Positions 4,016 through 5,111 of a stretch of DNA of 64,000 nt are shown in pieces. Positions within the stretch are counted from its first letter, which is position 1, and each line of letters starts with the position of its first letter. Under the pieces are notes generated by a model. That model saw nothing but the letters and a program-made list of their open reading frames with translations. It did no database searches and was not told the DNA's origin. The DNA comes from Enterobacteria phage T6: sequence record MH550421; one strand, written 5' to 3'. A program made the translations under genes and the position numbers.

Positions 4016-4249
4016 TTATTTTTTACGAAAAATTGATTTATTTTCTGCTGCCCATTTTTCAATAATTGCAGCAGGACCAGTAACAACAATTTTATCACCG
4101 TAATCTTCTGCGGCGAGTTGACCGAAATTATCTAATGCATCACGAAGAACTCCATGAGGCATTTCACCCATTTTATCTTTCTTGCCAGTGTAAATAAACT
4201 CAACTTTTACATCAGCAGTTTCAGCAATAAATTCTTGGTAAGTTTTCAT
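4016..4249 (-). CDS. internal-protein-like small protein with capsid-targeting leader MKTYQEFIAE (77 aa from second ATG)
   Basis: Starts MKTYQEFIAE, the leader shared by T4 internal proteins, ending in an I-x-E prohead-protease motif; GGAAAT RBS; early promoter upstream. Confidence 0.7.
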   Translation of the reverse strand: MKTYQEFIAETADVKVEFIYTGKKDKMGEMPHGVLRDALDNFGQLAAEDYGDKIVVTGPAAIIEKWAAENKSIFRKK

Positions 4250-4283
4250 TTTGATTTCCATTTGGTTTTGTTTTGATAGGGTA

Positions 4284-4313
4284 ATAGTATCACAACTAAA
4301 ACCCTATGTAAAC
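4284..4313 (-). promoter_or_regulatory. T4 early-type promoter with inverted repeat
   Basis: Minus GTTTAC, spacer, TGATACTAT; arms ATAGGGT/ACCCTAT flank the -10; 31-nt upstream block repeated at 4638-4668. Confidence 0.45.
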
Positions 4314-4325
4314 AACTTTGTGAAA

Positions 4326-4583
4326 TTATTTTAAATCTTCTAATCGTTTCTTCATCTTAGAACCATTTTTAGCAATTTCTCCTGCATCGGAGCATAATGC
4401 TAAAAGTGCTTTAACTTTAGTTTGGTCTCCTTTAAAAGATGAAGGATCGACCGCAGCAGCAAGTTCTTTAATACGAGAGAAAAGACGCTCAGCTTCAGCT
4501 AAAGCCATTCCAAGCTTTACTTCCATACCGTGGGAAGATTCAGTGATAGTAGTTTTTGTAGCAAACTCTTTGAAAGTTTTCAT
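4326..4583 (-). CDS. internal-protein-like small protein with leader MKTFKEFATK...ITE (85 aa)
   Basis: N-terminus resembles the capsid-targeting leader and contains an I-T-E cleavage motif; early promoter upstream. Confidence 0.65.
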   Translation of the reverse strand: MKTFKEFATKTTITESSHGMEVKLGMALAEAERLFSRIKELAAAVDPSSFKGDQTKVKALLALCSDAGEIAKNGSKMKKRLEDLK

Positions 4584-4613
4584 TTTATTTTCCTAATTAA
4601 TTTTGATGAGATA

Positions 4614-4643
4614 ATAGTATCACTACCTCATCAGCATGTAAAC
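4614..4643 (-). promoter_or_regulatory. T4 early-type promoter with inverted repeat
   Basis: Minus GTTTAC, spacer, TGATACTAT; arms TGATGAG/CTCATCA flank the -10. Confidence 0.45.
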
Positions 4644-4655
4644 AACTTTGTGAAA

Positions 4656-5111
4656 TTATTTTAAATCATCTGCCCAATCGAGTTTAAGAGGCTCTTTGTA
4701 TTCACGATCTAATACGACCGGAATTTGTACATCACCGCTAAATGATAAGGGTCCAACATTATAAGACAATGTTATATGCGGTGTGTAATCATCAAAATCA
4801 TGTGTAGCACCTAGTGCCCGCGCATACATGTGTCGACAGCGCAGATATTCAGAATCTAGCACAAGTACAAGAGTCGATCCATCTTGTGTTTTCCATACTT
4901 CTAAATGTCCAGAAGAAGCTACTTCAAAACTTCCGCTTGATGGAACATACGGAACATTTACTCTTGAATAACATATGGTCGAATGAATTTTTTCTCTAGG
5001 AACTGGATTAGGAACACGTAAAGAGCGCTGGAGTTCTTCCAGCGCATCAAGTGTTAATTCTGAAAACTTAGCTGCTACATAAAGACCCGTTGAAAAGTCT
5101 TTAAATTCCAT
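4656..5111 (-). CDS. 57B: gp57B-like protein (151 aa)
   Basis: Position next to 57A and gene 1; length matches T4 57B as recalled. Confidence 0.7.

Follow-up and report, generated by a model that had tools for sequence, protein, structure and literature searches.

Why does phage T6 carry, side by side, two small genes that begin with similar leader codons and follow the same stretch of regulatory DNA, and that encode otherwise dissimilar proteins? The question is raised by a stretch of 64,000 nucleotides from Enterobacteria phage T6 (record MH550421, here called the window). A first-pass annotation, made from the sequence alone, had described two open reading frames (ORFs) there as uncharacterised, injected anti-defence genes. 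Both ORFs are present, on the minus strand, and they are the genes ip5 and ip6 of T6, already named, which removes the claim of novelty. It is highly probable that they are the internal-protein (IP) genes of the T6 ipI locus, with products that would be packaged, cleaved and injected, Ip6 acting against the restriction enzyme McrBC and Ip5 serving as a second counter-defence protein, and that the blocks in front of them mediate the swapping of such genes.

The identification rests on position and on full-length identity. Window positions 3700-5400 are 100% identical to positions 67695-69395 of AP018814/NC_054907 (phage T6), the window position being the record position minus 63995. All genes around ip5 and ip6 lie on the minus strand, and the pair occupies the interval between 57B and trna.4, where T4 has ipI. 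This interval belongs to the two loci (the other is e-denV) by which T-even internal proteins are recognised. The role of 57B as a boundary is backed by synteny with T4, PST and Bas37. Both proteins match the deposited Ip5 and Ip6 families over their full length. Both match internal-protein families in PHROG, one at 1e-49 and the other, Ip6 with phrog_8111, at 3.2e-52. Ip5 is 100% identical to the Ip5 coding sequence of RB15 and to Bas37_0261. It is unchanged in T2, T6, RB15, Bas37 and some 250 further sequenced phages, and at 80% identity or more it is present in 268 phage records, T2 among them. Ip6, found in 245 phage records, is annotated as ipVI in PST (93.5% identity) and as Ip6 in VR7 (77%), and the ipVI/Ip6 naming includes GiZh. 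Genes, locus, leader and promoter blocks are the same in T6 as in the deposited Ip5 and Ip6 loci of RB15, PST and VR7; the difference is the two-gene set of T6. The class of proteins and the names date back to Repoila et al. 1994, as far as can be told from PMC9026906, PMC3012670 and PMC12373910, which cite that work for further proteins with a capsid-targeting sequence (CTS) in T2, T4D and T6.

The N-termini carry the argument for packaging. Ip6 starts with MKTYQEFIAE, the leader of T4 IPII and IPIII, and Ip5 starts with MKTFKEFATKTTITE, a long leader resembling that of T4 IPI (MKTFKEFTSTTTPVSTITE), with which it shares MKTFKEF over seven residues. The earlier match of both leaders to T4 internal proteins was correct and is refined by this division into two types. 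Both proteins follow the pattern MKT(Y/F)(Q/K)EF, in which positions 4 and 7 are aromatic, and in both the leader is closed by the L/I-x-E motif of the prohead protease gp21 (I8-A9-E10 in Ip6 and I13-T14-E15 in Ip5). Experiments have defined the CTS as the N-terminal ten residues of IPIII, in which positions 4 and 7 are important in targeting and positions 8 and 10 in processing; gp21 cleaves after Glu in L/I-x-E, and the ten-residue IPIII-type leader is enough to have foreign proteins packaged and processed in T4 (PMC9026906). Cleavage at I-x-E is predicted to leave mature parts of 70 amino acids (Ip5) and 67 amino acids (Ip6), in agreement with the first estimate, and a cognate gp21 gene is found in the same genome. 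The ITE of the Ip5 leader is constant in all five family members while the length of the leader varies, and the predicted local distance difference test score (pLDDT) of this leader is below 50 in an AlphaFold2 model. A scan for the leader motif in six frames of the window gave ip5 and ip6 as the only ORFs with such a start. Chance matches were considered and rejected because there are just these two in 64 kb and both are found at the canonical locus.

By analogy with T4, packaging, processing and injection of both proteins can be inferred. The leader would direct the precursors to the prohead core, gp21 would cut after E15 in Ip5 and after E10 in Ip6, and mature proteins of about 7.5 kDa would be ejected together with the DNA, which would place an inhibitor in the cell before phage genes are expressed. 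In the host, Ip6 would neutralise McrBC and Ip5 would act on another target. The supply of internal proteins late in infection, when they are needed for packaging, might come from read-through from the late-promoter-like sequence TATAAATA in gene 1.

The mature parts are a different matter. BLASTP aligns Ip5 and Ip6 over residues 1-11 only, which bears out the claim that they are mutually dissimilar. Likeness to T4 IPI, IPII and IPIII likewise ends at the leader, and the fold matches include none of the three; the mature domains resemble an IPI*-like inhibitor neither in sequence nor in fold. Pfam, NCBIfam and PADLOC gave no match for either protein, and sequence searches in PDB gave nothing meaningful. 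A word-indexed homologue search yielded only close T-even relatives, 11 proteins for Ip6 and 5 for Ip5. Both families are narrow. For Ip5, an exhaustive phmmer search against 1.84 billion representative proteins found 3 clusters, which leaves no remote relatives to build on. A relative with 47.6% identity is found at the other IP locus (e-denV) in Mosigvirus phages. In E. coli O157 typing phage 6 this relative (2001..2282 of the compared stretch) has the leader MKTYSEFLSE, lacks its own promoter block and starts with an ATG that overlaps the stop of the lysozyme gene e. AlphaFold2 models built on shallow alignments predict generic folds: for Ip5 a disordered leader followed by a helical hairpin of two long antiparallel helices (residues 17-44 and 54-84, pLDDT 71), and for Ip6 a compact β-α-β-β-α-β domain, a ferredoxin-like α/β fold (pLDDT 82.5). 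The structure prediction proposed with the first annotation gives folds without resemblance to the T4 internal proteins.

Some annotations give Ip6 a length of 81 amino acids. An in-frame ATG at 4261 (4250..4261, minus strand), four codons 5' of the ip6 start, would add MEIK. This start was rejected because all IPs begin with MKT and because GGAAA is found 5-9 nt before the ATG at 4249. The ip8 gene of RB15 shares the arrangement ATGGAAA.TAAAATG with T6 ip6, thus GGAAA is probably where ribosomes bind for initiation at MKT.

For Ip6 a function can be named. A preprint describing HIDEN-SEQ in phage Bas37 (KarlGJung, MZ501089) places bas37_0260 at the T4 ipI locus and reports that the gene is dispensable on K-12 lacking McrA, McrBC and Mrr, that its deletion makes Bas37 specifically sensitive to McrBC of E. 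coli K-12, and that likeness of the protein to IPI-III is confined to the N-terminal signal (bioRxiv 10.1101/2025.11.20.689424). T6 Ip6 is identical to Bas37_0260 at 76 of 77 positions, the sole change being I62V, and the two phages have ip genes of equal length, the same 76-nt spacing between ip5 and ip6 and the same neighbours; the experiment itself was done in Bas37. In the supplementary fitness tables of the preprint, compared for BW25113, CFT073, CFE299, CFE303 and CFE336 (CFE331 was left out), insertions in bas37_0260 average 8.4 reads per site on the McrBC-positive BW25113, and 227-340 on each clinical isolate of the four compared, a depletion of about 30-fold on BW25113. Ip6 of T6 probably neutralises the K-12 type IV enzyme McrBC, as shown genetically for the 99%-identical ortholog. 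The suspicion of an anti-defence effector was accordingly right for at least Ip6. The same ortholog makes the mature region of Ip6 that of an already characterised internal protein, the very finding that the first-pass annotation had named as speaking against an uncharacterised effector. According to Lehman & Pratt in 1960, about a quarter of the hydroxymethylcytosine in T6 is reportedly left unglucosylated. If T6-type DNA is not fully glucosylated, the exposed hydroxymethylcytosine would explain the need for an inhibitor of McrBC, unlike in the fully glucosylated T4. A gentiobiosyl figure of 72% is given for T6 (PMC6024577).

For Ip5 the only lead to a target is a fitness effect specific to CFT073. 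Insertions in bas37_0261, the Bas37 ortholog of ip5 (2364..2621 of the compared Bas37 stretch, corresponding to window 4326..4583), drop from 263 to 61 reads per site on CFT073 (log2 fold change -2.09, adjusted p 0), compared with log2 fold changes of -0.01 on CFE299, -0.01 on CFE303 and +0.26 on CFE336. The immigration-control region of CFT073 contains a diverged homolog of the type IV enzyme GmrSD, c5421 (PMC4437046). T4 Ip1, Ip2 and Ip3 each inhibit a different GmrSD enzyme (Silas et al. 2025, PMC12373910). The GmrSD enzyme of UTI89 restricts T2 and T6, as do those of ECOR21 and ECOR17, and the CT596 enzyme restricts T2, with the locus ip5-ip7, and not RB15 (PMC4437046, PMC12373910). It is possible, and stated here only tentatively, that Ip5 is an injected inhibitor of a defence for which no phage counter-measure is known, a type IV enzyme of CFT073 such as c5421 being the best candidate.

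The proteins compare with the internal proteins of T4 as follows. IPI* (a GmrSD inhibitor), IPII and IPIII have the same leader logic and gp21 site and are found at the same two genomic loci, and the lifestyle proposed for Ip5 and Ip6 is the same: packaged, injected and blocking a type IV restriction enzyme. Beyond the leader, Ip5 and Ip6 have no sequence similarity to the T4 proteins, the target of Ip6 would be McrBC instead of GmrSD, and the GmrSD enzymes blocked by T4 IPI, IPII and IPIII still act on T6 and T2. In Bas37 there is no gene between denV (bas37_0233) and e (bas37_0234), and the second IP locus, which holds ipII and ipIII in T4, is thus empty; Ip5 and Ip6 may be the only small CTS-bearing internal proteins of this phage. 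The e-denV region of T6 falls outside the window.

Comparison with other T-even phages suggests why two dissimilar genes follow the same regulatory DNA. Between the common genes 57B and trna.4, T4 has ipI, T6 has ip5-ip6, T2 has ip5-ip7 and RB15 has ip5-ip9-ip7-ip8. The T6 block between 57B and ip5 equals the T4 block between 57B and ipI, and the 5' half of the T6 block between ip5 and ip6 equals the T4 block between ipI and trna.4. In an alignment of ten such blocks, taken from T6, T4 and RB15, GTTTAC and GTGATA(C/T)TATTA are invariant and the flanks vary. The block at the T2 junction between ip5 and ip7 (1730..1840 of the compared T2 stretch) is chimeric, with a 5' half like the T6 ip5-ip6 block and a 3' half like the 57B-ip5 block, joined within GTGATACTATTA, and has the look of a scar left by recombination in the -10 region. 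Differing gene sets between the same flanks are the pattern to be expected if crossovers hit the promoter core and the leader codons, and the comparison shows these two elements as the apparent points at which ip genes are swapped among T-even phages. As judged from the sequences, ip5 and ip6 are unrelated and the regulatory block is the part that is repeated, which speaks for gene swapping rather than duplication; of the 'cassette-style duplication' proposed earlier, the repeated block stands and the duplication of genes does not.

The block of 31 nt in front of each gene is exact in both places, as first reported, and no further copy was found in the window at up to 3 mismatches or in 100 dinucleotide-preserving shuffles. 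It forms the core of a 71-nt repeat (4271..4341 versus 4601..4671, 83% identity), of which a third, weaker copy (61%) is found at 3973..4043, upstream of trna.4. The leader codons of the ip genes also fall within repeated DNA (46 nt at 76%). On the coding strand the 31-nt block reads GAT TTA AAA TAA (Asp-Leu-Lys-stop), an A/T-rich stretch and GTTTACA. The -10 hexamer TACTAT, with an upstream TG, is found 17 nt beyond the -35, in the less conserved half and inside a hairpin. A repeated cassette does precede each gene, as had been claimed, and the 31-nt block, lacking the -10, is not the whole promoter. All three sites of the locus match exactly the early promoter consensus TTTACW-N17-TAYWAT of PST/T4-type phages (Comeau et al. 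2014, PMC4122927).

The hairpins of the T6 blocks have 12-13 bp and z scores of -4.3 to -4.8, with 0 of 200 shuffles as stable. There are 9 matches to T4-early-type promoters in the window; an inverted repeat of 7 nt or more accompanies four of them, three of which belong to the IP locus. Three more promoters of this type, at 837..865 (minus strand), 1174..1202 and 447..474 (minus strand), precede small genes similar to e.7/e.8; at 837..865 a 7-nt inverted repeat (GGCTCAT/ATGAGCC) brackets the -10, as in the IP-locus blocks.

Similar elements have been described before. Arbiol et al. 2010 mention that Repoila 1994 observed them at IP loci, and describe them as T4 early promoters combined with weak stem-loops rich in A/T, at a time when more than 30 IP variants were known (PMC2839356). 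The promoter-early stem-loop (PeSL) cassettes of T4-type phages (Arbiol 2010; Comeau 2014) share with the T6 blocks a repeated early promoter and a stem-loop, which in T6 is predicted, beside small variable genes, and both have been proposed as recombination sites. Arbiol et al. regard the IP-locus elements as analogues, not homologues, of the PeSLs of RB49 and phi1 (PMC2839356); unlike these, the IP-locus elements have T4-early instead of σ70-consensus hexamers and weaker, A/T-rich stems. In the T6 blocks the hairpin encloses the -10, whereas the stem-loop of a PeSL lies beside the promoter.

Several observations weigh against Ip5 and Ip6 being packaged and injected counter-defence proteins with genes swapped through their promoter blocks. 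No direct report on presence in the virion, processing or injection of Ip5 or Ip6 from T6 or Bas37 was found in the literature, and the preprint infers packaging of Bas37_0260 from the leader only. Its evidence on McrBC, not yet in a journal, was obtained in Bas37 and not in T6. The mature part of Ip6 has an isoelectric point (pI) of 6.5 and is not basic like T4 IPII and IPIII. The hairpins pair in 78.7% of cells over the ten blocks with 2 compensatory pairs, which does not exceed shuffle and slide controls, and selection for the hairpin itself is therefore not shown. In addition, ip5 and ip6 each have a strong early-type promoter of their own, and protection could then come partly from new synthesis. 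Carried further, this would mean that it is chiefly protein newly made early in infection that acts, and that the leader, the codons of which belong to the repeated DNA, is retained as recombination homology and not for packaging or injection. Such an explanation appears improbable, because the Ip6 leader agrees in 10 of 10 residues with the sequence that suffices to get foreign proteins packaged and processed in T4 (PMC9026906), and because the ITE is invariant in Ip5 variants with leaders of different length and sequence, which points to selection on processing. Moreover, a restriction enzyme that is in the cell before infection is best countered by an inhibitor made in advance, and this has been reported for IPI* (PMC3012670, PMC4437046). 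Even less credence can be given to the idea that Ip5 and Ip6 are generic head-filling or DNA-associated proteins without a specific host target, serving charge neutralisation or as scaffolding cargo. The mature pI of Ip5 (9.2, like the T4 IPs), generic predicted folds with no enzyme or inhibitor signature, and the finding that both ip genes are non-essential in Bas37 would be in line with it. It does not account for the specific McrBC-dependent phenotype of the Ip6 ortholog knockout, absent in a strain without type IV systems (bioRxiv 10.1101/2025.11.20.689424), or for the specific GmrSD targets of all three T4 IPs (PMC12373910); Ip6 is not basic, and the hypervariability of the IP locus suits an arms race better than a structural role.

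Further points concern Ip5. The effect on CFT073 is a single data point from pooled fitness measurements on which the authors of the preprint do not comment, and 57B, which encodes Acb1, is depleted on the same host (-1.56), which makes a local or polar effect possible. On CFE299 and CFE336 the 57B/acb1 insertions are not depleted, and on CFE303 the value is -0.86 (not significant). T2 and T6, both with Ip5, are still restricted by GmrSD enzymes, which shows that Ip5 and Ip6 block none of the four variants from UTI89, CT596, ECOR21 and ECOR17, provided that the laboratory stocks of T2 and T6 carry the sequenced loci. Ip5 might accordingly not inhibit restriction at all and might instead act against another class of defence or outside defence, the CFT073 signal being due to polarity or coupling with 57B/Acb1. 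This is judged unlikely, if less so than the two explanations above: ip5 is downstream of 57B, and insertions in ip5 can therefore have no polar effect on that gene; each of the four IPs whose target is known (Ip1, Ip2, Ip3 and Ip6/Bas37_0260) is an inhibitor of a type IV restriction enzyme; and CFT073 has the GmrSD homolog c5421. Injected counter-defence proteins remain the preferred explanation for both genes.

Table. Features of the ip5-ip6 locus and related genes in the T6 window
Feature	Position	Strand	Basis or remark
gene 1, deoxynucleoside monophosphate (dNMP) kinase	5353..6078	-	first in transcription order of this stretch
57A	5111..5353	-	between gene 1 and 57B
57B, Acb1 phosphodiesterase against the cyclic oligonucleotide-based antiphage signalling system (anti-CBASS)	4656..5111	-	conserved upstream boundary of IP locus; Pfam Acb1 2.6e-60
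ip5, Ip5 precursor, 85 amino acids	4326..4583	-	internal protein
ip6, Ip6 precursor, 77 amino acids	4016..4249	-	ortholog of McrBC inhibitor Bas37_0260; ORF, PHROG, identity
trna.4, predicted membrane protein, 61 amino acids	3772..3957	-	conserved downstream boundary of IP locus
Ip5 leader MKTFKEFATKTTITE, long IPI type	4539..4583	-	predicted gp21 cut after E15; alignment with T4 IPI leader MKTFKEFTSTTTPVSTITE
Ip6 CTS, MKTYQEFIAE	4220..4249	-	predicted gp21 cut after E10; 10/10 residues as in T4 IPII and IPIII leaders
exact 31-nt repeat upstream of ip5	4637..4667	-	57B end codons and stop, A/T-rich stretch, -35 GTTTACA
exact 31-nt repeat upstream of ip6	4307..4337	-	ip5 end codons and stop, A/T-rich stretch, -35 GTTTACA
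ip5 promoter, T4-early-type, TTTACA-17-TACTAT, TG-extended -10	4614..4642	-	nearly identical to T4 57B-ipI intergenic promoter
ip6 promoter, T4-early-type, TTTACA-17-TACTAT, TG-extended -10	4284..4312	-	5' half as in T4 ipI-trna.4 promoter
trna.4 promoter, third cassette, TTTACT-17-TATTAT	3986..4014	-	closes the locus; repeat and consensus match
13-bp hairpin around -10 of ip5 promoter	4604..4633	-	RNA fold -14.8 kcal/mol, z -4.43, 0/200 shuffles as stable
hairpin around -10 of ip6 promoter	4276..4307	-	RNA fold -18.1 kcal/mol, z -4.80
12-bp hairpin around -10 of trna.4 promoter	3977..4004	-	z -4.30
late-promoter-like TATAAATA within gene 1	5709..5716	-	possible source of late read-through for 57A-57B-ip5-ip6 (inferred)
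gene 21, prohead protease	35937..36575	+	expected to remove leaders; Pfam Peptidase_S77 1.5e-111

The surroundings of the locus are collected in the Table. The 57B protein is a full-length Acb1, yet it is called 'RNA ligase' in the RefSeq records of T6 and T4; with this identity, acb1, ip5 and ip6 are three adjoining counter-defence genes. Past trna.4 follow trna.3, trna.2, the tRNA cluster and a segB-like gene. ARAGORN found six tRNAs (Arg, Tyr, Met, Gly, Leu and Gln) in 1681..2972 on the minus strand; a tRNA-Thr at about 2647..2721 of the window is given in the RefSeq T6 record and has no ARAGORN call. Compared with T4, the tRNAs for Ile, Ser and Pro are missing, and those for Tyr and Met are present. 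The segB-like homing endonuclease ORF (1761..2534) is found within the tRNA cluster.

The biology of the locus is by now textbook T-even genetics, with the names given in 1994, the shuffling of promoter blocks recognised by 2010 and the link between Ip6 and McrBC reported in 2025. The analysis confirms that a counter-defence hotspot can be recovered from a reading of the raw sequence. Ip5 is a very widespread and nearly invariant candidate for an injected protein, and pairing it with a host system would extend the arms race between internal proteins and type IV restriction and help to explain the host range of phages of the T2/T6 type.

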